A stretch of 64,000 bases of DNA, taken from the IMG/VR virus record IMGVR_UViG_3300022074_000002. One strand, written 5' to 3'. Shown piece after piece: positions 16,301 through 63,262 of this stretch (positions are counted from its first letter, which is position 1; every line of letters begins with the position of its first letter). The notes under the pieces were generated by a model. It searched no databases. It was given only the letters and a program-made list of their open reading frames with translations, and had not been told where the DNA came from. A program made the position numbers and the translations under genes. Source of the stretch: a virus.

Positions 16301-19300
16301 TCGTGAAGATGTTTCTATAGAATCTACAATTATGCCAGTATCTGGTATAGTACAATCTATATTTGTAACTACATTTAGTGAAGAGATTTCTAGTTTTTAT
16401 GATAACTTAGGTTTCTATCAATCAGACAAAGGAAAACTAGGTGTACAAAATCAAAAGATAATAGACAGTTTATTCTATCAAGATTATTCTTATGTTATTA
16501 AGTCAGGAACATCTATTGAGCAATGGCGTGATCTTATCAAAGCAACTACACACCCTGCTGGTTTCAAATTATTTGGTCAAGTTGATATTGAAGCAACTGC
16601 TAATTTTGCAACAAGAGATCAAGGTTCATTAGTTGAGTTGCCTAAAGATCGTACACCTGATGCAACACACTTCACCGTTGTACAACTTTGGGATCCTGAG
16701 AAGAATAAGATTACAGTTGAGAACTCAAGTAGAATTGTTACACAGACTGTACAGAAAGTTGAGAACCAAAGAATACGTAAAGGATTTGGTACTGCTGCAA
16801 CAAGTGAGTTTAATTTTAACGAAGCAGAGGCATTTGAGTTTACATTAGGTGCAGTATTTGATGGAGCATTTGATAATGATGGTAGATTACAAGGAACTAC
16901 TGCATTTACAACTAAGAAAGATGGTGTGGCATTTAACTTAGCAGATAATAAGTTAAAAAATATGATTGTGACTCTTGATGGAGTTATACAAGAACCTGGC
17001 ATTGCATATACTATAAATTCTGGAAATATTACATTCTCACAACCACCTCTTGTTGGCGTTACATTCTATGGTAAGGTCTTTAAATTTAAAGATGAACAAT
17101 ACAATACAAAATACTTTAAAAAATTAAGAAATATATTCCAACGTGGTGGTACATGGATAGATTCTGCAAATCAAATTGAAAGAAATGTACAGTTTATTAT
17201 TGATGAGACTATTGGATATGGTAAAGCAACTCACCCATCATTAGACTGGAGTACCAAACAAGATGATTATGAGGCAAACATCAGAGCAATCTTAGATGCT
17301 TATCAACATGATATTAGATTTGGTGGAAATATCAAGACAATTGATTATGCATCAATCTTTAGTTCGGGTAGTGCTTATCTTTACATTAGGAATTATAAGA
17401 CACAATCTAATGATATATTTGAGTATGCAACTAGATTAGCAAAACTTGCAATTAGGAACTGGGACTTTGTTGATGTAAACATTGCATATGTTCAAGGTCA
17501 GAAAACAATGACTGTCAGCAGCACTAAGAATCTTGCTGTTGGTTTGTTTGTAAGTTCTGGTAAATCATATCCAACAGGAACTAAGATTGTATCTATTGAT
17601 AGTGATACACAGGTCACATTAAACAATGCTGCACTTGCAAACTCTGGTGGTGGCGGTGGTGCTCCATCTGGTACCACTCCTGTATCTGGCACAGGTAGTA
17701 CAACTACTATTGGCACTAGCACTGCACAAGTTCCATTAGGAAGCACATTCACTGTGCCACCTGGTGCAACTGTCACAGTACCTCTTTCTTTCTCAGGTAC
17801 AACACAAGCTAAGTTTGGTTGGAGTGCATTGAACAATGGTATGTTCTATAAAGCAGGAGAGTTGATAGAGAAGAATGAAACAGAAATTATTCAATTAGCA
17901 TTGAATGCAACTCAAACACAGTATCCAAACTTAGGTTGGGGTGGAGGTCCTGGTGTAGCACCATATTATCCTCTTCAAATGAGACCATTGATACAGGCGT
18001 ATGTTTATCATCTTAAGATGGGTGGTAATTTTAAAATTGTAGAGAATGCACAAGCATACTATAAACAAAATGATTATCCTTATGGTGAAGAGTTGTATTA
18101 CGATGCATCATCTTTAGGTGAAGTCCAGAAGGGAATTACTGGAACTGTGGAGTCAACAATTTTCATAATGAATGAAGTTAAAAATAATTGTATACAGGCA
18201 ATGAGAAATCAGTTGTCAATCACAGATCCTAATGTTCTTGTAGATTCTCTAAGTCCTGTATGTGCAGAAGTAGAGAGTACACTTAACACATACCATGATA
18301 TTACTGAGACTATTATTACAGAAGGGCGTGGACTTGTAGAGAAGACACCAGTTAATCAAAATAAGTCTGGTTATTGGACTGGTACAGTAACATATTCTAA
18401 TTACAATATACTTGGTGATCCTTTACTTCCTGTAGAGGAATGCACTACTGTCATCTCTGCAATGGATTCACTGTATGAAAATTTAAGTGATGTTGTAAAA
18501 GAAGAGTCTGTAACAAGAAGTCTACCTGATTATATTGATGGTGAGACCACAGACTTTGAATTATATTGGGATGATAATACTGAAGTAAACACAGAAGAAG
18601 ATGAAGATTTATTCCTTACAATCAATTCAGTATTACAAAGACCTAAGTTTACAGAAAACTATCCATTAAAAGATGCTTACTGGATTGATAGAACTGTTAT
18701 TCCTAACGTAATTAAATTTGATACTGCTCCTATATGGGATCAAGACTTAGGTGCTAAGAGTATTGGTGAACCAACTGCTGTAGAAAAAGTTGTAGGTATT
18801 GGTGTTTCTAATTACAAGAGATTGACAATTGATTTTGAATTGGTAGATGGTGTTAGAAACGGACCTTTCTTAATTCTTGATGTATTAGATGGAACTGTTC
18901 AAAGCATTGAATCCGAAGATAGTTTGTATGTATTCTTAGATGGTGTACTACAAGTAAATGGAAAGGCGTATACTGTTTCAGGTCCTAATATCACATTCCA
19001 TGATTCTATCAAGAAAGATATGCAGATTGACATGCGTTACATCTATGGTAGAGACGTAGGTCAAATATTAAACATATATGACTTTGCACCTGACACTTAT
19101 TTCAGTCAAGGAACTTTCTCATTTGTTGCTTCCCAACAAAACATGGATACTTTGTTAAGTTATACATGGATGGGTGAAAAGATAGGTAATCCTATACATG
19201 TGTGGCAAACAAGAGCAAATGGTACTAAGAATGTAATAGGTGAACTTTCAAACCCAATTAGAACTGGAAACACTGTAGTATTTGAATTAAAATCTCAAAA

Positions 19301-37684: not shown

Positions 37685-40600
37685 ATGGCAATTCATATTA
37701 ATTCCGATAAAGAAAAGTTTAGGGGCGTCAACCCGAAACTTATCGGCGACAATGAACTTACAATTAGAAGTGGAACTGGTTCTGATGAGAAAGAAATTCT
37801 TAGAACACAGTTAGACGCTAGTACAGGATTGCCCCGTGTTGGTATAAACAGAACGGGTCAAAGAGTTAATGACGTTCAAATAGATTCTGGTGGTTCTGGA
37901 TACATATCACCACCAACTGTAACTATTGCTGCACCACCAGGTGGAGGTGTTCAAGCACAAGGTTCTGCTTTTATTTTTAACGGACAAGTTGTTTCTGTTG
38001 CTGTTAACGAACCAGGCAACGGATATACTACTGCTCCATTAGTTACTTTATCAGGCGGTGGTGGTGTTGGTGCTGCTGCAACAGCAGTTCTCGATACTGT
38101 AGACTTTGAACTTGATATTAACGGTGCGATTAGAACCTCAACTTCTATCATCTCTGACACTGCGAGAATCCTTAACCTTGATATTGATAACTTTGTTACT
38201 CCTAACGCAGCATTTAGAGCACCATCTTTAAAAACATTTGTTAATAACTCTGGTACTCTTTGGTCTCCAAATATTATTCTACAGACAAATGCTTACAGAT
38301 ATTTTGGAGCAAACGTATACCAAGCATTAAACTCAGGACAAACAGGATCTGATGCACCTGTTCATACAGATGGCGAAGCATTAAATGGCGAAGTTAATTT
38401 CAAACATATTGGTTTCCGTGTTGTAGATACAAATGCATATGGATATAGTGCAACAGGACCTGCTGGTGAGTTTCCAAAATCTATTACACCTTTACTAGGT
38501 GATAGATCCGACAAGATTGCAACTACAGAATACGTCCTCAACCTAGCAACGAATGACGTTGGTGGTCGTATCTACGTTTCACAGCAAATTGGTTCTGATC
38601 TTAACGATGGTCGTTCTGCTGTAAACCCAGTTAGAAGTATTAAAAAAGCAGCACAATTAGCATGGTCAACACCTGGCGTTAAAGAAACTATTATTGTATC
38701 TGGTGGAGACTATGTAGAAGATAACCCAATCTCACTACCTCCTGATGCATCAGTTGTTGGAGATAACTTACGTCTTGTTATCATTCGTCCTGCTAACCCA
38801 CAGAAACATATCTTTAAGTTTGGTGATAAGAACTATGTAATCGGTGTTACCTATAGAGATAAGATTGACTCTAATGGTGACGCAGTTGCTACTTGGGACT
38901 TTGCTATGGTCTTTGACGATAAGCAAAGAGTCATAATTGATAAAGAAGCAAATGGAGATTCTGGAACATCTTGGCCAATAGGTCATCAAATATTCGGACC
39001 TCAACAGTTCCGTGTTGGTTTCCAAGACAACACTGGTTTAGCAAATCTAACTACTGGTTTACAAGTTGTTGGTGTTAACACTGGTGCTAGAGCAGATATT
39101 ATTGCTGTCGCATTTGCTCAAACTACAGGTGCGAGTGCATATGTTGCTGGTAATATTGATGTTAAATTAGTCAGTGGTTCTTTTGTAGAAGGTGAACAAT
39201 TTAATTACGTAGTTTCAGTTCAGACTGGTGCTCAACAATCATTGAATACATCAGGAACGACAGCTGCTAATAAAATTACATACACACAAGATCCTACTTC
39301 TGCAATTCCTGCAGGAACATATGTGTATCTTTCTGATGCTGGTAATGCAGCATTTACTGCATCAACTGGATATTATGAAGTTGCTTTAATTGAACCTAAT
39401 GATATTAACACTCCCACAGCATGGGAAGTAACCTTTATACCTCTTCTAGGTTCTACTGGTTGGAACAATGTATTCACAGCACAAATAGAAACCTTTACAG
39501 GAAATGCTACCGTCAATACTTTAAATACAAATTCTCTTCAATCAATTAGAGCTGAGGGTGAAGTTGTATCTGTTGACGAAGATTACGTTACATCATTACC
39601 TATTGCTAGAATTGACTTCTCATTACAAGGTGATGCTAGTATTGCTCAAGATGGTTTCCAAAGTGCACAGTTTGGTAACGCAGAAGATCTAGGTGGTATC
39701 GTATTCTACACAAACGCATTAGTTGGTAGAAATAATACACACGAGTTTAAAGATGGTCAAGAAATATTAATAGAAGGACTACCAACTTCCAACCCTGATC
39801 TATCAGTATTAAATGGTAAGCAAAGAATTTACAAAGTAATTGAAGATGCTGATGGTCGTTGCAGAAGATTTGTAATTCCTAAAAAAATGCCAGCAATCAC
39901 AGATGCTAATCTGGATCCTGGTCAATTTGCTATTGTAAAAACTTTTTCAAAGTCTATTACACTTACACTTCTAAACTCTCCAAACACCTTCCCAATATCT
40001 ACACCAGTAGAAAGAAGATTCCAAGACGCTTGTACATTCCTTCGTAACAACAGAGAATTTATTGCAGAAGAAGTTCTTGGTGAGGTTAATAATCAGTTTG
40101 CAAGATATCATTATTCTGTTTATGATATTGGTGCTGGTGGTGGAAATGATTTTAAAATATTTGTTGGACTTACTGGACAAGAACACACATACGTTTCTGG
40201 TGGTACAGTAACATTTGGTGGAAGCACTGTTAATGTAACTAATTTTGTTTACGATAATATTGTTACAGGTAATGCTACTGTTACAACTGCATCTCCTATA
40301 GCAGGATTAGCAGAAGATGATGTAATAAAACTAGAGGGAATGACTCTATCCTGTAGTGCTGGTAATAAAGTATATCCTGCATACAGTGCTTATAGTGCAT
40401 CAGGAGATGATGGTGATACACAATGTAAGCAAGATGTTGTTCACTTTATCAATGCTCTTATAAGAGACTTAGAATTTGGTACAAACCATAACGTTCTTGA
40501 AGGTTCTCAGAAATATATTGTTGGTGGTAAGATAACATATATTGATGATGAAATTATAGAAAATGTTCGTGCTATTGAATATGCTAGACAGTTAGCAATA

Positions 40601-43600
40601 TATTGCATAAACAACTGGAGAACTGGAACTGGAACTCCTACAGAACCAATCTATACACCAAAATATTCTAGTCTACCAAGATACTTTGATGACACTGTAG
40701 TTACATCTACAGCTTTGTTAAATGCAGATGGTAGTTCTAATGGTAGTGGAAATGCTTGTAATGATGTAACATCTGCTATTGATACTCTATCATTCTTATG
40801 GAACGATGTTATTGCTAACAATGCTAGTGGAACATATCTAGATGCTGCATACCTAATTTCTAGAAACAAAGTTCTTATTGCAGATCAAGCATTACGTGAT
40901 ACAGAAGCATACTTCCCATTCTTAAATCTTGATGATACATCAGAAAGAAAATGTCGTAGAGATGTTAGAAAAATATTAGATGGTTTAATCAGAGACTTAG
41001 TATTAGGTGGTAACGATGGTATCTTAACTGCTGCTGAATCATACTTTACAGGAACACAATTAACTGGTGTTCAAGAAGCACAACGTGCACCAACTTTATA
41101 TGCTGTTGGAAGAGCAAAATTATATGCTATCGCAGCAATGCGTAACTGGACTGATGGTAATGTTCTTGAAGTCACACCAAGCAACGCAACATATAATTCA
41201 ACATCAGGTGAATTAACTGTTTCATTCCCTGCTCCTTTAATAGATGTTTCTATTGGAGATAGAATTGCATTCAAAGAAGAAGCACTTAATTTCTCTTGTA
41301 CATATAACGGTACAACAGCAAACCATCCTGGTCCTGCAAAAACAGATCCATCTTATGGAAAGAGTTTTAACATATCAAACCTTGTAAGTAACGGAGTTAC
41401 AACAACAATTACATGTAATGTTGGAGATGCAGGTCCTGCTGCTGGTGTTGCTCACACATATACAGGTTCTGTAACTAACGGAACAATCATAATTTATAAT
41501 CCAACACAACTATCATCACCTATTCCTAAGTTTGAAGATTGGAATATACTTCTTGATGCTACTTCAAGTGCTGCGTCTAACATATTATCTCCAACAAATG
41601 CTACTTATGAACCAGGAACTGGTTTACTAGAATTAACAGTTCCATCTGGACATAACGTATCAACATCTAATGAAGTTAGAATTGCTCCTGACTCATTAAC
41701 AATGACCTGTGCGATGGATAACAACATCACAGAGCACAAATATCCACAAGAAGGACAACCAGCATTTGGTAATAATAGACCTGTAACTGCAGTAACTGCA
41801 ACTACAATTACCGTTGATGTTGGTACAGCAGGAGCAAACTTAACATTTACTCCAACAGATGCAACATATGACCCTTCAACTGGTTTGTTGGTTCTAACTA
41901 TTGGTTCTCATAGTTTAACTGTAGGCGAAGGTGTTGTTATTGCTAGTGACTCACTCACATTCACATGTGCGATGGATGGCAACCAAAGTCAGAAAACTTA
42001 TCCTCGTGCATCTACAGATTATGCTGCTGAAAGATCTCTGCCAATTGCTGCAGTAACTGCTGAAACTATTACTGTTGACGTAGGAACTGCTGGTGCTAAC
42101 AGAACATTTACTGCTACTGATGCAACATATACACCTTCAACAGGAGTCATGGAACTTACTGTTGGTCAACATGGTTTAGGTGTTGGAAAGGGTATTGTAA
42201 TTCTTGATAACTCTCTTACATTTACATGTGCTCAAGACGGTAATGCTACAAACCATTCATATCCAAGATCCACTGACCCTGCATCAGGAACTTCTAGAAC
42301 TATCACTGCTGTAGGTGAAACACAGCATACAATTACAAATGCACCATATGATCCTGCTACAGGAATAATAACTGTAACTATTTCAAATCATAATTTCTCT
42401 AATGGTGATTACATTAAACTTGATGATGATTCATTAACTTATACTTGCACATTAGACAGTAATGCATCTAATCACACTTATCCTCGTGCTACAGATCGTG
42501 TTAGTGGACGTTGGTTGGCAATTTCTAATGTAACACAAAATACATTTGAGATTAATGTAGGTGCTAACTCAGAAGGTGGAGCACATACATTCGTCAGTGC
42601 ATCATCAAATGGTTTGAAGAGACAGACTGGAACATTGACTGTTAATGTTGGAACATCATCTAACACAACAAACCACACATTTGTAAGTGCTACTACTAAT
42701 GGTATTACACATTCTCCAACCACAACTCACACATTTGTATCTGCAGCAGCTGACGCTGTAAGTCATCAACCATCTGCTGTTCATACATTCAAGAGAATGG
42801 ATGCAAACTCTGTGTCGGTATATGCTGCAGGAGCTGCACCATTATGTGCTGGAGTTGCTACATCTATCAACACAATCATGAGTACATTGACTGATGTGTT
42901 GGATGGTACGACTTCTGCTGGTTCTACAGCAAGAACATATGGAACTCTATTTGATGCCTCACTACTCTTTACATATCCTGATAGTTTCTTATATGATGAA
43001 TTTAATAAGAGAGTATCAATTCGTGGTAACTATGATGATTATCCAATCATTGAAGCATCTCCATATACACAGAACGCATCTGTTATCTCTTTCTTAGGAG
43101 GTGGTGGTGCACTGGTTGATGGATCTAAAGTCAAACAACCCAACTGCCCATTTCCTGGTCTTGAACTAGATGGAACTGCATCCTTCCCTAATCAGGGTAA
43201 GTCGATGGTTGCATCTGCATTCACGATTGTATCTTTTGGTGGTACTGGTTATAAGGTTATTAATGATGGTTACACACAGTTGGTTTCTGTGTTCGTTATC
43301 TTCTGTCAAGATGGTGTGCTTGCTGAGTCAGGTGGTTATTGTTCTATTACTAACTCTGCTACTAACTTCGGTACATTTGCTTTAAGGGGTGTCGGATATA
43401 GAGAAGAGTGCTACACATTTGACCAAGGTATAGTCAGTAACGTATCTGCTACACCTACAGGTAGAACAATACTTACAATTAGTGGATTAGGAAGAGAACC
43501 ACTAGAGCATTATGTTGGTAAAATTGATGGGTATAGAAATACAAACGTAAACATAGAATACTTTGTTGATGTTGTTGCTGCTGTTACTGTAGGTCCTCCA

Positions 43601-46600
43601 TTCTCTGCACAGTTAACATTTGATGATGGTACTGGTGGTGGAATGGACTTGACCGATTTGTCTACTGGTAATCCAGTATCTACTGGTGCTCTTCTTGGTA
43701 AGAGTATTAAATTACATAGACCATCTATTGTTAACTCCTCATCACACACTTGGGAATTTGCTGGATCAGGTACTAACTACCTAGCACTACCTGAGAACGG
43801 TGGTACTAAGATTGAAGCATACGAACAGGTTTCTGAACTATATGGTCGTGTATATGTCTCTGGTACTGACGAACTTGGAGACTTCAAGGTTGGTACATTT
43901 GCTAGAATTGAAAACAGAACTGGTGCGATTACCTTTACTGGTACGGTTACAATCTCTGAAGTTGAATTCTTGAAACTAAAAGGTGGTGACGTTGTTGTTA
44001 CTGGTTTTGATGCATCTAACACATTGGGTGGTGCTAACGCTACTGACTCTAAACTACCTACTCAGAAAGCAGTTAGAGACTACATCACTAACTCCTTAGG
44101 ACCTTACATCAACAAACCATACTCTACTAACGCTGTTCCTAGAGCACTGGTTGAATTGACTGACTCTGGTAAGATATCTGTTGACCAGATTCCAGCACTT
44201 AGACCTTTCAGTGTATTTACTGTTCCTGATCAAGCATCAAGAACTTCTCTAGAAGGAGCACTTGCTGGTGACATCGCAATCCAACAGGATACATCACAGT
44301 CATTTATTCTAAACAATGACCTTGAGAGTTTATTCTTAGGATTTACAGTAGACACTAATTTAGCATTTACAATTGGAGATATCTTCGAGGGTAGTATATC
44401 TGGTGGTCGTATACAGGCAACAGAATATAGACAAGGTGTTGTATTCAGAGTTAATATCTCTAACGGTGGTTCTGGATACACTGTTGCACCAACTGTTAGT
44501 TTCTCAGGTGGTAACCCTGCAGCTGGTGCTGTGTCAGCAGCAGCAACTTGTACAATTGCAAACGGTCAAGTTGTTACTGTAACTATCCAGACGTTTAATG
44601 GATTTAAAGGTGGTAAAGGATATACCACACAACCTACTGTTACATTCTCTGCTCCTCCAGGTGCTGGTCAACAAGCACAGGGTAATCCTTTAATTGAAAG
44701 TAGATTATATGGTAGCATCGTTAACAATATTAAGATTGAAGATACTGATACTGTTAATGACAGCACAACACCAAGTGCAAATACAGTTAATATTAATAGA
44801 ACTATTAACACATCTTCATTCAATGTTAACAACTGGGTATCTCTATCATCTAACCAGATTGCTGCATCAGATATTACATCAGGTGTTATTGAAACAGATA
44901 GATTAGCATCAGGTGGTGCTGCTAACTCATTCACATTCTTAAGAGGTGACCAGAACTTTGCATTAGCAGTTCAGTCTATCAAAGGTGCTGAGACAAGATA
45001 CTTTGCTAAACTGGTATCACAGGTTAATACTGGATCATCATCTATGATCTTTAGCACGAACTCTGACGTTCTTATTGGTCACGATGTTCTTTCTGGTGTT
45101 GCTGGAATACAAAACAATACAAGTATTACTGGTGTTATTACTGCTGCTGGTTTAACAACTATATCATTAAATAATCCAGTTACTCAAAACATTCCATTAG
45201 GAACAATCATTGAGTTTGAGCGTGGTGAATCACCAATGACATTTGAGTCTACCTTCACACAGGGTGGATTTGTTGATGATGTCATCATCGCAAACGGCGG
45301 ATCAGGATTTACAAACGGACAATACTTTGATCAATCTCTAACAGGTGGTACAGGAACAGGATTAAAAGCAAACATTGTTGTTGCTGGTAACGCTGTTACA
45401 GAAATGACTGTTACTGATGGTGGTACTGGATACAATGCTGACTTCTCAATTACAGTTGCACCTTCAGCACTTGGTGGTGGATCTAGTTTAGTATTAAATG
45501 CTAAAGTAAGTACAGTTAATAGACAGTATGCAAACGTTTCTCTTGACATTAACAGAGTTACTGACCTAACAATTTCTGCTGACCTTTACGGAACAATTGG
45601 TGTTTCCAGATATAAGAAAGCACAATTTAATATTGGTCAGGCAGGAAACGGATCTGTTGAACTTAAGACTGGTGCTGACAGTGGACTTGATGCTGACTTA
45701 TTAGATGGACAGCAAGGTAATTACTATACCAATGCAAATCACTTGTTCGCTGGACAAGTTCCACAAGACAGATTGGGTGGTATATATGGTATTGACATTA
45801 GTGGATCTTCTGCTAACACAATTAGATTACAGTCTGGTACTAACAACCCAACCTCTAATCCAAATCCAAACAGTTTTGTTGAAGGTGTTATTTCTAATAC
45901 AGTATTCAACAGTTCTAATGGATTGGGAACTGCATATCCTTCAGTTAATACAGGTATTGGAACTGGAACATCTACCAAGCACTTAGTTCTAACCATAAGA
46001 AATGGTGCTGCTGGTTTTGACGCATCGTTTGGTGGTGTAAGACAACTTGCATTTGCTAATGATGACAATATGTACCTTCGTGGTTCTGGTAACGGAGTCA
46101 GCACATGGAACTCATGGGCGAAGGTATGGACATCATTAAGTGATGGTGTTGATTCTGGAATGGATGCTGACAGACTAGACAACAGACAAGGTAATTGGTA
46201 TCAGGATGCATTAAACATTAACTACGGAACATTATCTGATAATAGACTTCCTAGATTTATTAGTGAAACTAAGTTTAGAGATAAGATCACAATCAAAGCG
46301 TTTGCTGGTGATCCTAAGTTTAGAATATATGTCTCAGGTCAAATACTTAATCAGGCACCATTTATACCTGGCGATCCTAACAACCCATCTGTAAACCTTT
46401 ACAATGCTAACGCACAGGGTGTTGGTAGTTTTGTTATCGACAACGTTGTTACCAATGATGATGTTAATGATAACTTTAATGACTACACAATCCTAATTGG
46501 TAGACTTACATCTGGTAACTTTGCTGGTGCTCTAACAGTTGGTACTGCATCTAACAGAGTAGAGTTTGATGACTTTACTATTGAAGATGGTAACACACTA

Positions 46601-48100
46601 GAAGTTTGTAACTTACATAGTGATGGCGGTGTTGGACAGTTACAATTAGGTAGAAAAGATGGTAACGCAACTACACCTAGAATATTATTCAATTCATCTC
46701 AGCTCGCTTCTAGTTACAACGCTAAGATAGAAGCATCAGGTGGTAATGCATCTGCAGGATCTGGTTCTCTTAACGTTGATGTTGTAAATGCTGACGGATT
46801 TACAATTAAGAACCAAGTTGTTTGGAACCAAGGTAACATACAATTCTCAAGTTCTAACACACCAAACTATGCTGTACAACGTGATGGATCTGGTAACTTC
46901 TCTGCTGGAACAATCACAGCAAACTTAGTTGGTTCTGCATCACTTAACGTATTGAAGACTGGTGATACAATGACTGGTTCATTGAACATCACTGGTGGTA
47001 GTTCAACACTTACAGTTGCTGGTACTACAAATCTCAATAGCATAGTTAACATTGCAAATGATCTTAGTGTTGATAGTGGTGTATTATTTGTTGATGTATC
47101 CGCTAATGAGGTCGGAATAAACACTACATCTCCAGCTGCTCCTCTAGACGTTAGAGGTGATGGCGGTGTCATGATCCGCAGTACTACCAACAATGTTGGT
47201 GTAGGAATTAGATTCAGTGATCAAACTAGCGGATTTACTCAGCAAGGTAGATTCTTCTATCAGCATGGTGATGCTACTACTGGTTTTGGTTCTTACAACG
47301 AACAGTTCCAAGTTGAAGGTACAGAAACATTATTAGGTTTCAGAGTAGTTGGTGATATCCATGCATCCAGAAGAATGGGTGTTGGTATAAATCGTTTACC
47401 AAATTTCACATTTGAAGTTGGTGGAACTGGAATGTTCTCAGGTGCTCTTACTATTGACAGTGCTAATGATAACTCTGGTGCACCATTATACTTCTTAGGT
47501 TCTAACTCACAAAGGAACTTTAGAATTGGTAACCAGATTGGTCACAGTAATGCGTTTGAAATAACACCATCTACAAACAATGGTGGTCAGAACTGGGATG
47601 GCACTCCTGCAATTTATGTAAGAGGTGACAGAAGAGTTGGTATCAATACATCAGCAATATCTGGTGTTGACTCTGAATCAAACACAACTAGAAGTTACTA
47701 CTTGAATGTTCAAGGTGACATGAACATCAATGGTCAGTTGTTCCAGAATAACTCTGAATTCGTAACATCTAGATGGACAGAAGCATCTAACAATCTAGAT
47801 ATTTACAGACTATCCAGAGTTGGAATCAAGAAACAAGATCCTACATATGATCTACATGTTCTTGGTGGAGTTAACATTGAAGGTTCCACATTTAGTGGTG
47901 GACAGAACACATCTGTTCTTTATGCTAACGGTGTTAAGCAGTGGATTGACTCTTATGGAATATTCAAGGCAAACTCAAATACAGTTTCTGAAAACGTAAC
48001 TGTACCAGCAAATGTCAACTGTGTAAGTGCAGGACCTATCACTATTGCTAACGGTTATACAGTGACTATAAATAATAGTGGTAACTGGGCTATTGTATAA
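37685..48100 (+). CDS. Giant tail-fibre-like protein (3471 aa) with two phycobiliprotein-like domains and nested beta repeats
   Basis: IYVS...GSD.NDGRS...P.RSIKKA, KLPTQKAVRDYI, GLDADLLDG/GMDADRLD and GINT..P..PLDV motifs; cyanophage fibre-type C-terminus. Confidence 0.85.
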   Translation: MAIHINSDKEKFRGVNPKLIGDNELTIRSGTGSDEKEILRTQLDASTGLPRVGINRTGQRVNDVQIDSGGSGYISPPTVTIAAPPGGGVQAQGSAFIFNGQVVSVAVNEPGNGYTTAPLVTLSGGGGVGAAATAVLDTVDFELDINGAIRTSTSIISDTARILNLDIDNFVTPNAAFRAPSLKTFVNNSGTLWSPNIILQTNAYRYFGANVYQALNSGQTGSDAPVHTDGEALNGEVNFKHIGFRVVDTNAYGYSATGPAGEFPKSITPLLGDRSDKIATTEYVLNLATNDVGGRIYVSQQIGSDLNDGRSAVNPVRSIKKAAQLAWSTPGVKETIIVSGGDYVEDNPISLPPDASVVGDNLRLVIIRPANPQKHIFKFGDKNYVIGVTYRDKIDSNGDAVATWDFAMVFDDKQRVIIDKEANGDSGTSWPIGHQIFGPQQFRVGFQDNTGLANLTTGLQVVGVNTGARADIIAVAFAQTTGASAYVAGNIDVKLVSGSFVEGEQFNYVVSVQTGAQQSLNTSGTTAANKITYTQDPTSAIPAGTYVYLSDAGNAAFTASTGYYEVALIEPNDINTPTAWEVTFIPLLGSTGWNNVFTAQIETFTGNATVNTLNTNSLQSIRAEGEVVSVDEDYVTSLPIARIDFSLQGDASIAQDGFQSAQFGNAEDLGGIVFYTNALVGRNNTHEFKDGQEILIEGLPTSNPDLSVLNGKQRIYKVIEDADGRCRRFVIPKKMPAITDANLDPGQFAIVKTFSKSITLTLLNSPNTFPISTPVERRFQDACTFLRNNREFIAEEVLGEVNNQFARYHYSVYDIGAGGGNDFKIFVGLTGQEHTYVSGGTVTFGGSTVNVTNFVYDNIVTGNATVTTASPIAGLAEDDVIKLEGMTLSCSAGNKVYPAYSAYSASGDDGDTQCKQDVVHFINALIRDLEFGTNHNVLEGSQKYIVGGKITYIDDEIIENVRAIEYARQLAIYCINNWRTGTGTPTEPIYTPKYSSLPRYFDDTVVTSTALLNADGSSNGSGNACNDVTSAIDTLSFLWNDVIANNASGTYLDAAYLISRNKVLIADQALRDTEAYFPFLNLDDTSERKCRRDVRKILDGLIRDLVLGGNDGILTAAESYFTGTQLTGVQEAQRAPTLYAVGRAKLYAIAAMRNWTDGNVLEVTPSNATYNSTSGELTVSFPAPLIDVSIGDRIAFKEEALNFSCTYNGTTANHPGPAKTDPSYGKSFNISNLVSNGVTTTITCNVGDAGPAAGVAHTYTGSVTNGTIIIYNPTQLSSPIPKFEDWNILLDATSSAASNILSPTNATYEPGTGLLELTVPSGHNVSTSNEVRIAPDSLTMTCAMDNNITEHKYPQEGQPAFGNNRPVTAVTATTITVDVGTAGANLTFTPTDATYDPSTGLLVLTIGSHSLTVGEGVVIASDSLTFTCAMDGNQSQKTYPRASTDYAAERSLPIAAVTAETITVDVGTAGANRTFTATDATYTPSTGVMELTVGQHGLGVGKGIVILDNSLTFTCAQDGNATNHSYPRSTDPASGTSRTITAVGETQHTITNAPYDPATGIITVTISNHNFSNGDYIKLDDDSLTYTCTLDSNASNHTYPRATDRVSGRWLAISNVTQNTFEINVGANSEGGAHTFVSASSNGLKRQTGTLTVNVGTSSNTTNHTFVSATTNGITHSPTTTHTFVSAAADAVSHQPSAVHTFKRMDANSVSVYAAGAAPLCAGVATSINTIMSTLTDVLDGTTSAGSTARTYGTLFDASLLFTYPDSFLYDEFNKRVSIRGNYDDYPIIEASPYTQNASVISFLGGGGALVDGSKVKQPNCPFPGLELDGTASFPNQGKSMVASAFTIVSFGGTGYKVINDGYTQLVSVFVIFCQDGVLAESGGYCSITNSATNFGTFALRGVGYREECYTFDQGIVSNVSATPTGRTILTISGLGREPLEHYVGKIDGYRNTNVNIEYFVDVVAAVTVGPPFSAQLTFDDGTGGGMDLTDLSTGNPVSTGALLGKSIKLHRPSIVNSSSHTWEFAGSGTNYLALPENGGTKIEAYEQVSELYGRVYVSGTDELGDFKVGTFARIENRTGAITFTGTVTISEVEFLKLKGGDVVVTGFDASNTLGGANATDSKLPTQKAVRDYITNSLGPYINKPYSTNAVPRALVELTDSGKISVDQIPALRPFSVFTVPDQASRTSLEGALAGDIAIQQDTSQSFILNNDLESLFLGFTVDTNLAFTIGDIFEGSISGGRIQATEYRQGVVFRVNISNGGSGYTVAPTVSFSGGNPAAGAVSAAATCTIANGQVVTVTIQTFNGFKGGKGYTTQPTVTFSAPPGAGQQAQGNPLIESRLYGSIVNNIKIEDTDTVNDSTTPSANTVNINRTINTSSFNVNNWVSLSSNQIAASDITSGVIETDRLASGGAANSFTFLRGDQNFALAVQSIKGAETRYFAKLVSQVNTGSSSMIFSTNSDVLIGHDVLSGVAGIQNNTSITGVITAAGLTTISLNNPVTQNIPLGTIIEFERGESPMTFESTFTQGGFVDDVIIANGGSGFTNGQYFDQSLTGGTGTGLKANIVVAGNAVTEMTVTDGGTGYNADFSITVAPSALGGGSSLVLNAKVSTVNRQYANVSLDINRVTDLTISADLYGTIGVSRYKKAQFNIGQAGNGSVELKTGADSGLDADLLDGQQGNYYTNANHLFAGQVPQDRLGGIYGIDISGSSANTIRLQSGTNNPTSNPNPNSFVEGVISNTVFNSSNGLGTAYPSVNTGIGTGTSTKHLVLTIRNGAAGFDASFGGVRQLAFANDDNMYLRGSGNGVSTWNSWAKVWTSLSDGVDSGMDADRLDNRQGNWYQDALNINYGTLSDNRLPRFISETKFRDKITIKAFAGDPKFRIYVSGQILNQAPFIPGDPNNPSVNLYNANAQGVGSFVIDNVVTNDDVNDNFNDYTILIGRLTSGNFAGALTVGTASNRVEFDDFTIEDGNTLEVCNLHSDGGVGQLQLGRKDGNATTPRILFNSSQLASSYNAKIEASGGNASAGSGSLNVDVVNADGFTIKNQVVWNQGNIQFSSSNTPNYAVQRDGSGNFSAGTITANLVGSASLNVLKTGDTMTGSLNITGGSSTLTVAGTTNLNSIVNIANDLSVDSGVLFVDVSANEVGINTTSPAAPLDVRGDGGVMIRSTTNNVGVGIRFSDQTSGFTQQGRFFYQHGDATTGFGSYNEQFQVEGTETLLGFRVVGDIHASRRMGVGINRLPNFTFEVGGTGMFSGALTIDSANDNSGAPLYFLGSNSQRNFRIGNQIGHSNAFEITPSTNNGGQNWDGTPAIYVRGDRRVGINTSAISGVDSESNTTRSYYLNVQGDMNINGQLFQNNSEFVTSRWTEASNNLDIYRLSRVGIKKQDPTYDLHVLGGVNIEGSTFSGGQNTSVLYANGVKQWIDSYGIFKANSNTVSENVTVPANVNCVSAGPITIANGYTVTINNSGNWAIV
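40016..42906 (+). other. Two phycobiliprotein-like domains in the giant fibre (Cys914/Cys1025 and Cys1090/Cys1721)
   Basis: Hand alignment to beta-phycocyanin helices A/B, E (CxRD), G and H; see findings. Confidence 0.6.
41171..42830 (+). repeat. Five beta-rich protein repeats (T.ATY.P.TG...LTFTC..D....YP...TITV.VG...HTFVSA), four of them nested
   Basis: Read directly from the translation. Confidence 0.8.
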
Positions 48101-52408: not shown

Positions 52409-54065
52409 TACAAAATTACCTGAAGATTTTGTAGTAAACCAATTTATTCCTTTTCTAAAAGAACACAAGGAATATATCTATGACATCTATTTTACCTGTC
52501 GTATGCCACCCTTCACGCAAGATGCGATGGGTGACGTAATTGATGGTGACATCAGAGAGACAACTTTAAATGCTTTGTTTGTATCACAGGAGACTGGGAT
52601 ACCTTTGTCTGCAACATTTAATAATATCCAAGTTCCTCCTACACAAGAGAACTTGGATATTTTTATTGAGAATTTTAGATTCTTATATGACAATGGTGTT
52701 CGTATAGTTACCTTACCACACACAACATGGATGCTGACTGGTCAAATTCAAAAAGAATTTCCAGAACTAAAAGTAAAGAATACTATTCTTAGAGAAGTTA
52801 CTAGACCTAATGAAATAGTAAATCTTGCAAAGGCAGGGTTCTATTATATTAATCTAGATAGAGACCTTATGCGTGATAGAGATTCTCTTCTTAGAATTAA
52901 AAAAGCAAAAGAATATTGTGCTTCTATAGGTAAACCTGTTAAGATATCATTACTTTCCAATGAGTGGTGTTGGGGCGGATGTCCGATCATGCCAGAACAT
53001 TATCATTATAATATGGTAAGAGGAAAAGATGATCCACAATATTTTAATGATAGTATTAGTAGAGTATCGTGTTCTACATGGGATGAGAAAGATCCTGCTG
53101 CGTCATTAAAGGCAGCAACTATTCCTCCATGGAGAAAAGACTGGGAAGAATTTGTTGATCTTGGTATAGATGTATTCAAGATGCATGGTAGAGAAAATGC
53201 TATGCGTCTCTATGAGAGTATGACCATCATTAATAGATGGAAAACTAATGAAGAACTTTTACATCCACAGTTTAATGAATATATTGAAGACGTTTCTTTA
53301 GAAGAAAGACCTATTGATATATGGCGTGAAAAGATTAAGACTTGTAAGTTTGATTGTTGGGATTGTAATTACTGTGATTCTGTTGTTCAGTCTAGAATGA
53401 AAAAGAATGATAGACATTTTGATGATGACATTAAATTAGTATTAGAATCTATTGACAAGGCAGCAAGAAGAGAAAGTAATTTTGTAGAAGAAGGATATAA
53501 GTATGAAGGTTTGTCATCAAATATAGTAAGACATTTTCTAAACAATCTATTATCTAAACCTGATGCAATCTACATGGAACTAGGAGTTCATGCTGGTAGT
53601 ACATTCTATGCTGCTACTATGAATAGAGATGTAGAATCATTTGCTATAGATAATTATTCTGAGAAAGAGATATCACCTTTTAGAGATGAAGTAGAGGTAG
53701 AAGGATACGAAGACCCTAAGAAAACATTCTGGGCAGGACTACAACAGAAGCAATATTTTTGTGCTAAGTCAATACAAGATCTGACTCCTAGAGATATACA
53801 CAAACAACCTAATGTAATCTTCTATGACGCAGACCACGACCCACAAGTTCAGTATGATAATCTTACATTCTTAATTCCTGCACTTGCGGACAAGTTTATT
53901 CTTGTTATTGATGATGCAAACTTTATGGGCGTTGTGCAATCGTCTGAGTTCTGGGTAAAAGAACACAAACTTAATTTATTATTTGAAAGAAAAATACTAA
54001 CTAAAATTCCAGAAGATCCTAATGGTTGGTGGAATGGCATACATGTTATGGTATTACAAAAATGA
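52383..54065 (+). CDS. Peptidase-U32-family (Fe-S hydroxylase-like) domain fused to a class I SAM-dependent methyltransferase
   Basis: U32: INLDRDL, NEWCWGGC, SC, FVDLGIDVFKMHGRE, CKFDCWDCNYC; MTase: YMELGVHAGST, AIDNY, IFYDADH, ILVIDD. Confidence 0.7.
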   Translation: MASFSLPLNTKLPEDFVVNQFIPFLKEHKEYIYDIYFTCRMPPFTQDAMGDVIDGDIRETTLNALFVSQETGIPLSATFNNIQVPPTQENLDIFIENFRFLYDNGVRIVTLPHTTWMLTGQIQKEFPELKVKNTILREVTRPNEIVNLAKAGFYYINLDRDLMRDRDSLLRIKKAKEYCASIGKPVKISLLSNEWCWGGCPIMPEHYHYNMVRGKDDPQYFNDSISRVSCSTWDEKDPAASLKAATIPPWRKDWEEFVDLGIDVFKMHGRENAMRLYESMTIINRWKTNEELLHPQFNEYIEDVSLEERPIDIWREKIKTCKFDCWDCNYCDSVVQSRMKKNDRHFDDDIKLVLESIDKAARRESNFVEEGYKYEGLSSNIVRHFLNNLLSKPDAIYMELGVHAGSTFYAATMNRDVESFAIDNYSEKEISPFRDEVEVEGYEDPKKTFWAGLQQKQYFCAKSIQDLTPRDIHKQPNVIFYDADHDPQVQYDNLTFLIPALADKFILVIDDANFMGVVQSSEFWVKEHKLNLLFERKILTKIPEDPNGWWNGIHVMVLQK

Positions 54066-54628
54066 ATTCATTCAAACATCAATATATGGTAGTCCATCTT
54101 GATGATGATTTCTATCCACAATTAGAAAAAGCAATAAAACCATATCAAGATTATGAATCATGTAAAACAGATCAATGGGATGGCAAGAAATATCAGGCAC
54201 AGGATCATAAAGATAGAAGTTCAAAAGCGTGTTGGATAGACAATGATGAAGTCTATGCAATGATGGATGGTCTTGTGCATTTTGCTAATACAAAATGTGA
54301 CTGGAATTTAGATGTAAATTTTATGGAACCTCTACAACGTACAAAATATGATGTGGGTGATTTTTATGATTGGCATTGTGATGAAATGGGTTGGACAAAA
54401 GGTAAGAGACCTAATAATAGGATACGTAAAATAAGTTTTACAGTTATGTTAAATGATGATTTTGAAGGTGGTGAATTTGAAATACAGACAACAGAAAAAA
54501 ATGTGGTAGAATTAAAGAAGAAGGATGTTATAATATTTCATGCTGATACTCCACACAGAGTTAAACCAGTGACTAAAGGTGTTAGACATTCTCTTGTTGG
54601 GTGGACACAAGGACCTGCATTTAAATGA
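54062..54628 (+). CDS. 2OG-Fe(II) oxygenase (PKHD-type)
   Basis: WHCD...RKISFTVML.DDFEGGEF...HRVKPVTKGVRHSLVGW; ATGA overlap sets start at 54062. Confidence 0.9.
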   Translation: MNSFKHQYMVVHLDDDFYPQLEKAIKPYQDYESCKTDQWDGKKYQAQDHKDRSSKACWIDNDEVYAMMDGLVHFANTKCDWNLDVNFMEPLQRTKYDVGDFYDWHCDEMGWTKGKRPNNRIRKISFTVMLNDDFEGGEFEIQTTEKNVVELKKKDVIIFHADTPHRVKPVTKGVRHSLVGWTQGPAFK

Positions 54629-55188
54629 GATTTATAAAAGAATATACATTGAGTGATCTTGGTATATGTGATCGTCTTATAGATCTATACAAAGACGCTG
54701 ACAAAAAAGATTTAACTTATGCTGGTCGTGTAGGTGGTGGTAGTGTCATGCCTGAGATAAAAAAGAGTAGAGATTTTTTTATTGAAGATGCTGCTCCACT
54801 AGGAGAACCTAATGATTATAAATTTGATTTATATCAAGACGAGTTGAATGGATTTATTGATAATTATTTAAACTCTTTGACTATTCATAATCAAGAATTT
54901 GTAATGCAAAGACTACCACAGATTCAATACTATAAACCAGGCGATGGTTTTTATACTTGGCATGTGGATGCATCAGGATCTGATGGTTGTGATAGAGCAT
55001 TCGTATACATCACATATCTAAATGATGTTCCTAATGCTGGAACTGAATTTTTTTATCAAGAGTATACTGTAGAGGCAAAGAAAGGTAACACAGTAATTTT
55101 TCCTGCTGGACTTACCCATAAACATAGAGGTGTGATATCAGAGGAACATGAGAAATATATTATAACTGGATGGCTTTGGTGGGTATGA
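54625..55188 (+). CDS. 2OG-Fe(II) oxygenase (prolyl-4-hydroxylase-like)
   Basis: Y.PGDGFYTWHVD...YITYLND...THKHRG...KYIITGW. Confidence 0.9.
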   Translation: MRFIKEYTLSDLGICDRLIDLYKDADKKDLTYAGRVGGGSVMPEIKKSRDFFIEDAAPLGEPNDYKFDLYQDELNGFIDNYLNSLTIHNQEFVMQRLPQIQYYKPGDGFYTWHVDASGSDGCDRAFVYITYLNDVPNAGTEFFYQEYTVEAKKGNTVIFPAGLTHKHRGVISEEHEKYIITGWLWWV

Positions 55189-55715
55189 AAATTATAAAAA
55201 ACTTTTTACCTAAACAATTACTTAATGCATGTGTAGACGACTTTAGATCTAAGTTGAATACTGATTGTTGGTCATCTAGTAACTTTGCATGGAAACCATT
55301 TTTAAGACAGGGTATTCATGGATCAACTATTGCCACTGATATTCCTAAAGTATTCAGCGATGAGATATCAACATATCTAAAACCACATGCACCTGAGTAT
55401 AAGGAGTTGACATGTAGATATAATGTATGGCAACCAGGTGCTGGTATTGGAGTACACTCAGACACTCATCATTTGTTTGGTGCAACAATATATCTGAATG
55501 AACATTGGCATCCAAATGCTGGTGGTTGGTTTGTATGGATGGATCATGCTGATCTAAATTTAGATGAAGATCAAAGTAAACCTGATGTATACAGAGCAGT
55601 TTTACCAGAACAAAATATGCTAGTATTAAATGACTGTAGTGAGAGTCATCTAGTAACTACTGTTGGACATGATGCACCTGAGTATAGATACACAATTCAA
55701 ATATGGGGTGATTGA
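55185..55715 (+). CDS. 2OG-Fe(II) oxygenase
   Basis: VHSD...ATIYLN..W....GGWF...HLVT...RYTIQIW. Confidence 0.85.
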   Translation: MKIIKNFLPKQLLNACVDDFRSKLNTDCWSSSNFAWKPFLRQGIHGSTIATDIPKVFSDEISTYLKPHAPEYKELTCRYNVWQPGAGIGVHSDTHHLFGATIYLNEHWHPNAGGWFVWMDHADLNLDEDQSKPDVYRAVLPEQNMLVLNDCSESHLVTTVGHDAPEYRYTIQIWGD

Positions 55716-61809: not shown

Positions 61810-62505
61810 ATGTTCAGTAAAGAATTAAAAGAAGCAACTAAGGAATCTCATTCCGCAGCAGAAAATACAAAGTTTGTTGCAGGATTTCTTAGAGGTGTTG
61901 TTGACCCTGAGGAGTATCGTAAACTCATTGCCAATTTCTGGTATGTTTACAGTACTATGGAAAAACTAATTAGCGATGCTGATGACCCAACTGTAAGAGT
62001 ATTACAGGGATGGCAATCAGATCTTGATCGTAGTCAATCATTAGAAAAAGATCTAGCATATTACTACGGTCCTTATTGGAAAGAAGAGATAAAATCTTCA
62101 ACTGCATGTGATGCCTATTGTTCTAGACTAACTGAATTAGCACAGGAAGATCCATATCTTCTGCTTGCTCATCATTATACTAGGTACATAGGTGATCTAT
62201 CAGGTGGACAAATTCTATGTAAAATAGCAAAGAGTGCACTTAATCCTCCTGCGGGAGAAGGTCTTAATTTCTATGAGTTTCCTGAGATTCACAATGCAAA
62301 GGAATGGAAAACAAAATACAGAGCAATACTTGATGTATTGGATCTAGATCAATCACAGAAGAATGCTATATTTTCTGAAGCAAACTATGCATTTAGATTG
62401 AATATGTATATGTTTGATGAAATCAAATCTGAAGATCCTTATCCTGTAATGACAGCACTACAAGGTTTCTGGAAAGTAATTACTGGTTCAATTACAAACA
62501 AATAA
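61810..62505 (+). CDS. ho1: Heme oxygenase (ferredoxin-dependent, biliverdin-forming)
   Basis: LKEATKESHSAAEN (proximal His), AHHYTRYIGDLSGGQIL distal helix, EAN.AF.LN. Confidence 0.95.
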   Translation: MFSKELKEATKESHSAAENTKFVAGFLRGVVDPEEYRKLIANFWYVYSTMEKLISDADDPTVRVLQGWQSDLDRSQSLEKDLAYYYGPYWKEEIKSSTACDAYCSRLTELAQEDPYLLLAHHYTRYIGDLSGGQILCKIAKSALNPPAGEGLNFYEFPEIHNAKEWKTKYRAILDVLDLDQSQKNAIFSEANYAFRLNMYMFDEIKSEDPYPVMTALQGFWKVITGSITNK

Positions 62506-63143: not shown

Positions 63144-63262
63144 TCTGGGGAGTCATATGGATGGTAGGAATACTGGTCGTAATAGTGACTTGGTATATCT
63201 ACTATATACTAAAGATGTCATTTATGGAGATGAAAGATGGGAGTGATGACACCACCAAGTAG
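63137..63262 (+). CDS. Small membrane protein (41 aa, MVVWGVIWMVGILVVIVTWYIYYILKM...)
   Basis: Translated by hand; single transmembrane helix. Confidence 0.65.
   Translation: MVVWGVIWMVGILVVIVTWYIYYILKMSFMEMKDGSDDTTK

Follow-up and report, generated by a model that had tools for sequence, protein, structure and literature searches.

In the giant tail-fibre protein of a marine T4-like cyanomyovirus, two helical modules were identified which, by sequence profile and predicted fold, are distant relatives of the light-harvesting pigment proteins of the host, the phycobiliproteins (PBPs), with the attachment residues kept. The protein is encoded in a 64,000-nucleotide stretch of viral DNA (IMG/VR record IMGVR_UViG_3300022074_000002), here called the window, and the features discussed are collected in Table 1. 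The best explanation of the findings as a whole, a tentative one with a little under an even chance of being right, is that a captured PBP module was amplified in fibre and baseplate proteins, bears a bilin on its triad cysteine and serves light sensing by the virion. The fibre modules make a pigment-carrying, light-sensing virion a testable question. No published description of such PBP-like units in phage virion proteins was found in the literature.

The fibre ORF is that of a T4-like cyanomyovirus tail fibre. It is a full-length match to the profile of phrog_5342 (tail fiber protein; E 0, 4908 bits), the nearest named phage is S-RSM4, where the protein is annotated 'tail fiber protein', and its neighbours gp25, gp6, a gp13/14-like neck protein and gp15 constitute a baseplate/fibre gene block. 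The whole protein matched no Pfam family at E≤1. The original prediction, made from the sequence, had placed PBP-like domains with two bilin-attachment cysteines at positions 40016-42906, which correspond to residues 778-1740 of the fibre protein, and all strings that it quoted were found in the translation of 37685-48100. The two copies that it described are real (self-BLAST of residues 1021-1165 against 838-988, E 4e-11), and local HMM matches to the two units have E values of 3.6e-18 and 8.8e-26.

Table 1. Location of the tail-fibre ORF, the PBP-like units and related features in the window.
Feature	Position	Strand	Basis
Giant tail-fibre ORF, 3471 aa	37685..48100	+	ORF list, translation, phrog_5342
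PBP-like unit 1, aa 778-1044	40016..40816	+	AlphaFold model, fold searches, HMM
Beta-rich insert in B-E loop of unit 1, aa 809-897	40109..40375	+	Model strands E32-E120
C914-K-Q-D, Cys84-type motif of unit 1	40424..40435	+	Alignments, orthologues
Cys1025, N-terminus of helix H-like h5 of unit 1	40757..40759	+	28/28 orthologues
PBP-like unit 2, equivalents of helices B/E/F'/G, aa 1049-1152	40829..41140	+	Model helices H272-375, local HMM
C1090-R-R-D, complete Cys84/Arg86/Asp87-type triad of unit 2	40952..40963	+	Alignments, orthologues
Beta-repeat insertion of about 550 aa in unit 2, between helix G-like and putative helix H	41162..42820	+	Translation, phrog matches
Candidate displaced helix H of unit 2 with Cys1721, aa 1716-1742	42830..42910	+	Motif likeness to h5 of unit 1
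PBP-like unit in gp7-like giant baseplate ORF (10362-21392), aa 2262-2380	17145..17501	+	HMM E 1.5e-24, sequence, weak PF00502 match
Second PBP-like unit in gp7-like ORF, aa 2491-2655	17832..18326	+	HMM E 7.9e-13
Heme oxygenase gene	61810..62505	+	PF01126 E 2.1e-66, 224 bits

The predicted helices of unit 1 span residues 779-804 (B-like), 910-931 (E-like), 935-942 (short, F'-like), 954-975 (G-like) and 1023-1043 (H-like). The proposed correspondence with PBPs, with helix B on h1, helix E and its C-x-R-D on h2, helix G on h4 and helix H on the Cys-bearing h5, agrees with both hhalign and the fold searches, and the X/Y helices are missing as had been stated, the alignments starting at PBP residue ~34-36. 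The Cys84-x-Arg86-Asp87 triad of helix E is complete in C1090-R-R-D, which aligns to PBP Cys84 and is kept in 28 of 28 orthologues; in the C914-K-Q-D of unit 1, which lacks the Arg, the Cys and Asp are invariant, and 22 of the 28 have Gln in place of the Arg. The second cysteines (C1025 and C1721) had been equated with that of beta155; they begin the H-like helices and so lie close to beta155, but the equivalence is approximate, as hhalign places the beta155 Cys a few residues off, within an insert. The beta insert of unit 1 aligns weakly (Z ~7 in the wide fold search) with phage tail-tip/baseplate beta domains and contains Cys890, present in 28/28 orthologues. In unit 2, repeat matches to phrog_701, phrog_18802 and phrog_1276 lie at residues 1365-1632, inside the beta-repeat insertion. 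The segment beyond this insertion is probably the displaced last helix of unit 2, as was originally proposed: it carries the C-x-x-V-x-S/T-x-I/L helix motif of unit 1 h5, which is kept with Cys1721 in four close orthologues (L004, L006, L007 and L008), and in orthologue L023 the Cys-helix motif follows unit 2 after 212 residues (Cys to Cys) versus 631 here. The assignment remains approximate.

A profile built from 91 units was compared with 177,635 PDB sequences by hmmsearch. At E<10 there were 19 matches, 17 of them PBPs, in which the conserved Cys of the unit sits on Cys84; the matches span E 0.015-0.9, with CpcA the best (E 0.015). When the same profile was aligned by hhalign with 27 genuine PBPs, unit positions 20-152 fell onto PBP positions 45-173 over 120 columns (Prob 90.5%, E 1.3e-6). 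The Pfam family PF00502 was matched by 15 of the 91 units (best E 7e-5) and the next family by 3. The fibre units alone gave no PF00502 match at E≤10, that of the gp7-like unit is weak (13.6 bits, profile positions 17-60), and the gathering cut-off of PF00502 (22.2 bits) is not reached by the units of the window. Among PBP classes, the unit HMM ranks phycocyanin alpha top. An AlphaFold model from residue 778 onwards, covering units 1 and 2, had a pLDDT of 78 and displays the globin-like core of helices B, E, F', G and H. Model residues 1-267 superpose on PBP residues 36-177 with Z 14.2-15.8 and an rmsd of 2.0-2.6 A over 127-147 residues, Z 15.8 being reached by PBP beta chains. In an exhaustive, Foldseek-independent search of 48,161 chains, just 17 had Z≥8, and the top seven were PBP or ApcE bilin domains (Z 12-14.6). 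A Foldseek search with the model gave no match at E≤1e-3; this apart, the comparison with PBPs that had been suggested as a check came out in favour of PBP-like domains in both profile and predicted fold.

That this likeness is convergent or due to chance, a generic helical bundle with a short shared motif, is very improbable. The single statistics are weak (fibre units without a Pfam match, PDB profile E values of 0.015-0.9, no Foldseek match at E≤1e-3) and a best Z of about 14 is typical for helical models, but four independent lines (PDB profile, member-wise Pfam, hhalign and exhaustive fold search) point to one family in the same register, the entire globin core is covered by the alignment (rmsd about 2.2 A), and only phages whose hosts contain PBPs have the family. 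The units are thus homologous to PBPs in profile and predicted fold. As part of the joint explanation given above, and with its tentative standing, the two helical segments would be PBP-derived globin-fold modules with helices B, E, F', G and H and without the X/Y dimerization helices.

The units belong to a large repeat family. With unit 2 as phmmer seed, 593 representative proteins were recovered, the top 150 of which hold ~1,470 units, at up to 34 per protein. Two tblastn queries against 50,697 phage records matched 136 and 88 records, all from cyanophages except one unlabelled marine virus; no units were found in Microcystis phage Mel-JY01, Flavobacterium phage immuto, podovirus P-SSP7 or two Synechococcus genomes. 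The helix-H Cys is specific to cyanophage fibres, the position of Cys1025 being hydrophobic or missing in the tandem-array relatives. The original claim that the Cys84-type C-x-R-D site is kept proved right, and the site is under strong constraint: across the ~1,470 units, Cys is conserved in 97%, Arg(+2) in 94% and Asp(+3) in 99%. Of the 49 units without the Cys, 45% keep the Arg and 69% the Asp, against 96% and 99.9% of the others, while the fold residues Asp(+14) (92%) and Asn(+20) (78%) are retained. The comparison of these sequences shows the triad acting as one functional unit, apart from the residues that keep the fold; since it is lost as a block while fold residues stay, the fold does not need it. 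Both gp7-like units of the window have likewise lost all three residues together and kept the fold. In the orthologue of the second from record G001 the triad is intact, and this second unit is followed by two Cys-bearing h5-type helices.

Several features weigh against a bilin at this site. D13 and R91 are invariant in the alignment of the 27 PBPs, whereas the unit replaces R91 by Asp (position +9) and carries invariant residues without a PBP counterpart (Asp+14, Asn+20, Tyr+30 and a Thr); the site may therefore be remodelled for something else. The Arg of unit 1 is Gln in most orthologues, both the B-E and the G-H loop contain large inserted domains, near the location of the bilin in PBPs, and the 20-34-unit relatives would need very heavy chromophorylation. 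We know of no report of coloured or autofluorescent cyanophage particles. The PBP fold could instead have been exapted for structure, as a rigid helical spacer or decoration of fibres and baseplate that holds no tetrapyrrole, with C-x-R-D stabilizing the apo fold or the packing between units or chains. This is a substantial possibility, in keeping with the modular use of the unit (repeated in tandem 20-34 times per chain with periods of 108-170 aa, other domains nested in its loops), with the family-specific invariant residues, with minimal 108-aa units that have no helix H, with gp7-like units that work without the triad and with the lack of association with bilin-synthesis genes described below. 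A lone Cys that is so conserved, and that is partnerless in the 108-aa units, would however be odd in a passive extracellular scaffold; the block loss of the triad with persisting fold residues also speaks against such a role, as does the exact coincidence of the conserved residues with the triad that holds the chromophore in the parent family.

It is improbable that the site binds a ligand other than a bilin or forms cross-links, whether through a Cys/Asp metal site on the fibre axis or through inter-chain disulfides that staple the trimeric fibre, with the helix-H Cys pairing with, for example, Cys890. Metal sites on the fibre axis are common among phage fibres, and extra invariant oxygen ligands (Asp+14, Asn+20, Tyr+30, Thr) beside the triad, the invariant C890 and C1025 of the cyanophage fibre orthologues and the two consecutive Cys-bearing helices of the gp7-like ORF would suit such a role. 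An intradomain disulfide is nevertheless impossible in single-Cys units, no known metal-site motif was matched, and the Cys84 and beta155 sites of phycocyanin are probably too distant for a disulfide if the fold alignment holds.

The original interpretation, with bilins on the phage's own fibre and baseplate, is partly supported. In its favour is the heme oxygenase gene in the same window, which lies in the structural-gene block 14 kb downstream of the fibre ORF and whose enzyme makes biliverdin IXalpha. Co-occurrence of units with bilin genes, which had been predicted, was examined in 15 unit-bearing and 5 unit-less complete genomes and held for the T-type lyase gene cpeT alone. Neither HO (3/15 unit-bearing versus 2/5 unit-less) nor FDBR (6/15 versus 2/5) tracks the units, and P-SSM2 and S-SSM7 have both bilin-synthesis genes (ho1, pebS/pcyA) and zero units; this absence of co-occurrence counts against the bilin reading. 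cpeT was found in 13 of the 15 unit-bearing and none of the 5 unit-less genomes, an association that amounts to one or two independent contrasts because the unit-less phages form one clade and one long-branch outlier on the gp15 tree. The gene lies ~0.6-1.5 kb upstream of the unit-bearing giant fibre gene, on the same strand, in S-PM2 and S-RSM4, and 1.3 kb upstream of the first detected unit in Syn1. Cys84-type PBP sites are loaded by lyases of the E/F or S/U type, neither of which these phages are known to encode.

For the bilin-bearing virion, the following course is proposed. An ancestor of the marine T4-like cyanophages most likely took the module from a cyanobacterial phycocyanin-alpha-like gene, after which it would have been amplified and nested into virion fibre and baseplate proteins. 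In PBPs, Cys84 forms a thioether with the bilin, Asp87 contacts the pyrrole nitrogens and Arg86 a propionate; by analogy, while virions are assembled in the infected cell, every intact unit would have a linear tetrapyrrole joined to its triad Cys, either autocatalytically or by a host or phage lyase, and CpeT, the T-type lyase of the phage, may act on the additional helix-H Cys found in cyanophage fibres. If the triad Cys of intact units is loaded, the virion would therefore carry a few to dozens of bilins on fibres and baseplate. Their most plausible use would be light sensing that gates adsorption, photoprotection being less likely. The proposal in its most specific form, in which marine T4-like cyanophage virions would bear thioether bilins on the triad Cys and, through CpeT, on the helix-H Cys, with fibres and baseplate as a photoreceptor allowing adsorption in the light only, is rather unlikely. 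Were virions chromophorylated, phage cpeT, ho1, pebS and pcyA would gain a virion-directed purpose.

Adsorption of S-PM2, P-HM1 and P-HM2 takes place in the light only, independently of photosynthesis (PMC6628666), and P-SSM2 and P-SSP7 adsorb in the dark. The first three have 9, 5 and 5 units, respectively, and the latter two have none, an anecdotal match between phenotype and unit presence. One hypothesis makes three puzzles directly testable: why S-PM2 and P-HM1/2 require light for adsorption, independently of host photosynthesis (PMC6628666), why most cyanomyoviruses hold a lone T-type lyase gene without operon partners, and why some phages whose Prochlorococcus hosts lack phycobilisomes have bilin-synthesis genes (PMC3037559). 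Attached bilins would make this, as far as we know, the first virus particle with a photoreceptor pigment of its own, and this in the ocean's most abundant system of phototrophs and their viruses; even without bilins, the units clearly show an antenna fold taken over from the host and multiplied massively for use in building virions. They would also be a new, large and unannotated branch of the PBP superfamily.

Compared with known systems, the units come closest to light-harvesting PBPs (PF00502), the best sequence match being phycocyanin alpha and the best fold matches phycoerythrin and phycocyanin beta chains. They share the globin-like core and its helix order (B, E, F', G, H; rmsd 2.0-2.6 A over ~130-145 residues), the Lys-Cys-x-Arg-Asp-[Ile/Val]-Gly-Tyr start of helix E on Cys84 and its Gly-Gly end. 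They differ in the absence of X/Y (or A) helices, and therefore of an alpha-beta heterodimer interface, in the loss of the Asp13/Arg91 pair and in the added invariant Asp+14, Asn+20 and Tyr+30. They are tandem or nested repeats in virion proteins of 2,000-7,000 aa, whereas PBPs are free subunits of 160-170 aa known to carry chromophore. The bilin domain of ApcE (PDB 4xxi; phycobilisome entries 7eyd, 7sc7 and 9wg7), the third-best fold match (Z 13.3, rmsd 1.9 A), is likewise a PBP fold inside a large multidomain protein, with a loop insertion. ApcE needs no separate lyase to attach its bilin, which sets a precedent for loading without a lyase; unlike the phage proteins, it belongs to the cellular antenna and has a single domain of this kind, and its bilin Cys presumably lies elsewhere than at Cys84. 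Non-antenna globin-like ligand or sensor domains, namely photocobilins (8j2y, 8j2w), the RsbR/stressosome N-domain (3zta, 2bnl) and globin-coupled sensors (4zva, 4uiq), use the same broad fold in sensing, the photocobilins with a bilin, but score clearly below PBPs (Z 8-11.7), have no shared C-x-R-D motif that could be found, and are cellular signalling proteins rather than virion parts. The bilin genes of cyanophages (ho1, pebS, pcyA and cpeT) have so far been read as support for the host antenna, and we know of no proposal in print of a phage-encoded apoprotein target for them. The role of pebS/pcyA was called 'a mystery' and that of phage cpeT 'unresolved' (Sullivan et al., 2010; PMC3037559). 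These genes occur in the same phages and concern the same pigment chemistry, but they encode enzymes; the units would be the phage-encoded apoprotein target.

Two phycobiliprotein (PBP)-like helical modules, here termed units, are carried by the tail-fibre ORF: unit 1 (aa 778-1044) and unit 2 (aa 1049-1152 plus a putative last helix at 1716-1742). All strings quoted in the original prediction, which had aligned this region by hand to beta-phycocyanin, were found in the translation of the ORF, and the observation was borne out in nearly every detail. The whole fibre protein matched nothing in Pfam and, by phmmer, nothing in the PDB. The two copies are mutually related (aa 1021-1165 against 838-988, BLAST E 4e-11), and two stretches of the gp7-like ORF are related to them as well. 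When aa 1010-1175 were searched by phmmer against 1.84 billion representatives, 593 proteins were obtained at E<=1e-3, many of which span 2,000-7,000 aa and are matched in 10-34 stretches. The fibre segment is thus a single copy of a repeat that measures 108-170 aa. Five helices are the common form; the minimal form has four, with a period of 108 aa in the metagenomic relative P0004.

The window belongs to a T4-like cyanomyovirus. The nearest DNA to it is that of Synechococcus phage S-RSM4, and the window groups with S-RSM4, S-PM2 and Syn1 on a gp15 tree. Four giant ORFs lie in the region. The heme oxygenase gene is located within the late structural block and is preceded by gp15 and a terminase small-subunit-like gene.

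Coordinates of features in the window
Feature	Position	Strand	Details
gp25	8169-8561		
gp6	8561-10357		
gp7-like ORF	10362-21392		
Two units of the gp7-like ORF	17145-18520	+	
Tail-fibre ORF carrying the PBP-like units	37685-48100		3471 aa; phrog_5342 tail fibre, E 0
PBP-like region of the fibre	40016-42906		residues 778-1740 of the ORF
Beta insert of unit 1	40109-40375	+	contains C890, invariant in 28 orthologues
Long insertion with beta repeats	41162-42820	+	repeats of ~80-90 aa
Abutting ORFs in series	54026-57921	+	~180-200 aa each; downstream of the fibre genes
Neck protein	58969-59859		
gp15	59859-60659		
Heme oxygenase gene	61810-62505	+	PF01126, E 2e-66
2OG-Fe(II) oxygenase	62613-63143		3' of the heme oxygenase gene
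SNase-like nuclease	63237-63698		after the 2OG-Fe(II) oxygenase

Residues 778-1185 were modelled with AlphaFold, at pLDDT 39 from the single sequence and at pLDDT 78 and pTM 0.76 with a 73-row alignment. A Foldseek search of the PDB with the model returned nothing at E<=1e-3, PBP alpha chains appearing at E 0.03-0.1 (TM 0.38-0.45), and a shape search of the ESM Atlas returned only entries of TM<0.5, none of them relevant. VIA-align superposed model residues 1-267 onto PBP residues 36-177 in the Foldseek candidates (Z 14.2-15.8, rmsd 2.0-2.6 A over 127-147 residues), and all 50 of the 50 entries listed were PBPs. The start of this alignment at PBP residue 36 agrees with the earlier statement that the N-terminal X/Y helices are missing. 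In an exhaustive, Foldseek-independent search of 48,161 representative chains, only 17 chains reached Z>=8; the seven best, at Z 12.0-14.6, were PBPs or the bilin domain of ApcE, and photocobilins, RsbR and globin-coupled sensors ranked below them at Z 8-11.7. Since a Z of about 14 is often attained by helical models, the fold match is by itself insufficient for homology.

The 91 units aligned for sequence comparison came from the window, five metagenomic giants and one near relative. The profile built on them gave 19 matches at E<10 among all PDB sequences, 17 of which were PBPs. The best was phycocyanin alpha (E 0.015); the aligned stretch spans helices B to E and puts the conserved Cys opposite Cys84. 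Taken individually, 15 of the 91 units matched PF00502 in Pfam (best E 7e-5), and no other family was matched by more than three; a 'faint' PF00502 entry also stands in the precomputed Pfam lists of two giants. Against 27 genuine PBPs from three cyanobacterial genomes (alpha and beta chains of allophycocyanin, phycocyanin and phycoerythrin), hhalign aligned 120 columns with a probability of 90.5% and E 1.3e-6, matching unit positions 20-152 to PBP positions 45-173, C-x-R-D to C-x-R-D, and the fifth helix to helix H. Phycocyanin alpha was likewise the highest-scoring PBP class with the unit HMM. Predicted fold and sequence agree in one register, and on this joint basis homology of the units to PBPs can be taken as established with high confidence; convergence on a similar helical bundle is very unlikely.

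In the model, the B-E loop of unit 1 holds an 89-residue beta insert, which aligns weakly (Z about 7) to siphophage distal-tail or baseplate beta domains (8gtc_P, 8vjh_D, 8iyk_J). In unit 2, about 550 residues appear to be inserted ahead of the putative last helix, judging from a shared Cys-helix motif and a shorter insertion in an orthologue (L023). The repeated beta units of this long insertion each bear an S-L-T-[FM]-T-C-A-x-D motif and a conserved Cys, and have hits in the virion structural protein families PHROG 701, 18802 and 1276.

In PBPs, the C-x-R-D triad holds the bilin. Across about 1,470 HMM-defined units from 150 representative proteins, the Cys is conserved in 97%, Arg(+2) in 94%, Asp(+3) in 99% and Asp(+14) in 98% (positions counted from the Cys). 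In the 49 units lacking the Cys, Arg falls from 96% to 45% and Asp(+3) from 99.9% to 69%, while Asp(+14) and Asn(+20) are nearly unchanged. Since Arg and Asp decay with loss of the Cys and the other residues are kept, the triad is a functional module dispensable for the fold. The best explanation is that the triad Cys of intact units would bear a bilin, a reading favoured only tentatively. Joint decay of the triad is also seen within the window, where both units of the gp7-like ORF are without C, R and D but retain the remainder; the orthologue of this ORF in a related record (G001) still has the motif in its second unit. A purely structural exaptation of the PBP fold, in which the units serve as building blocks, is nearly as likely as the bilin reading. 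The second unit of the gp7-like ORF is followed by two consecutive Cys-bearing helix-H-type helices.

In the fibre, unit 2 has a complete triad (C1090-R-R-D) in 28 of 28 orthologues; unit 1 reads C914-K-Q-D, with Gln at the Arg position in 22 of 28. All fibre orthologues keep a second Cys (C1025 and probably C1721), which the tandem-array relatives lack. It had been equated with the beta155 bilin site of phycocyanin; it does lie at the start of helix H, near beta155, but hhalign does not demonstrably place it on that position. That the conserved site takes another ligand, or forms a cross-link, is possible though rather improbable.

When 50,697 phage records were searched with two distinct multi-unit queries, 136 and 88 records were matched, all from Synechococcus or Prochlorococcus cyanophages (S-PM2 included) except one unlabelled marine virus. 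The profile found no unit in podovirus P-SSP7 or in two marine Synechococcus genomes. Full-text literature searches found no published description of such cyanophage domains. The tandem-array giant genes, from uncultured phages, adjoin gp13- and gp15-like genes. Two metagenome contigs (L002 and L039, with P0004 and P0007) encode 19-23 tandem minimal units of 108 aa, four-helix and single-Cys. Their gp13 is closest to those of Microcystis phage Mel-JY01 (47%) and Flavobacterium phage immuto (40%), and in both of these the profile search found no units. The host of this lineage bears on the bilin hypothesis.

Units, CpeT, heme oxygenase (HO) and ferredoxin-dependent bilin reductases (FDBR) were scanned for in 20 complete cyanomyovirus genomes picked regardless of unit content, 15 with and five without units. 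Neither HO (3/15 vs 2/5) nor FDBR (6/15 vs 2/5) was associated with units; gene distribution thus lends no support to the proposal that the phages have bilin-synthesis genes in order to pigment their virions. CpeT was found in 13/15 vs 0/5. The expected co-occurrence was seen for cpeT, but the raw one-sided Fisher p of about 0.0014 (by hand, 13/2/0/5 table) ignores kinship, and only 1-2 independent contrasts underlie it. Four unit-less phages (P-SSM2, S-SSM7, S-SM2 and P-TIM68) form one clade on the gp15 tree; S-CRM01, the only other one, is an outlier on a long branch. With 1-2 contrasts the independent-pairs test has no power, and co-occurrence with cpeT was rejected as evidence of co-evolution; the data are compatible with a link but statistically weak. 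The unit-bearing genomes without CpeT, S-ShM2 and P-SSM7, both have sub-threshold candidates, and a CpeT-like gene for P-SSM7 is apparently listed in the table of Sullivan et al. (PMC3037559).

In S-PM2 and S-RSM4, cpeT lies roughly 0.6-1.5 kb upstream of a unit-bearing giant fibre gene on the same strand, and in Syn1 it precedes the first unit by 1.3 kb. The window and these three phages belong to one clade. In Syn9-type and P-HM-type phages, cpeT does not adjoin a unit-bearing gene. Directly upstream of the unit-bearing fibre gene of S-PM2 is a 2OG-Fe(II) oxygenase gene, and cpeT lies about 0.8 kb upstream of that. The S-PM2 record (NC_006820, 165928-177267) annotates 16 tRNA features inside a 3,779-aa 'short tail fiber' CDS with a tRNA-style locus tag, apparently an artefact of annotation or coordinates in this RefSeq entry.

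Liu et al. (2019; PMC6628666) report that adsorption in darkness fails for P-HM1 and P-HM2 but occurs for P-SSM2 and P-SSP7. The light-dependent P-HM1, P-HM2 and S-PM2 carry 5, 5 and 9 units, respectively, and both dark adsorbers carry 0, a match that is a lead rather than evidence, since it comprises five phages and is confounded by phylogeny.

At the Pfam cut-off, the units are not members of PF00502. PBPs possess the X/Y helices and an Asp13/Arg91 pair, whereas the phage units have neither; they are accordingly filed as a new PBP-derived family, not as phycobiliproteins.
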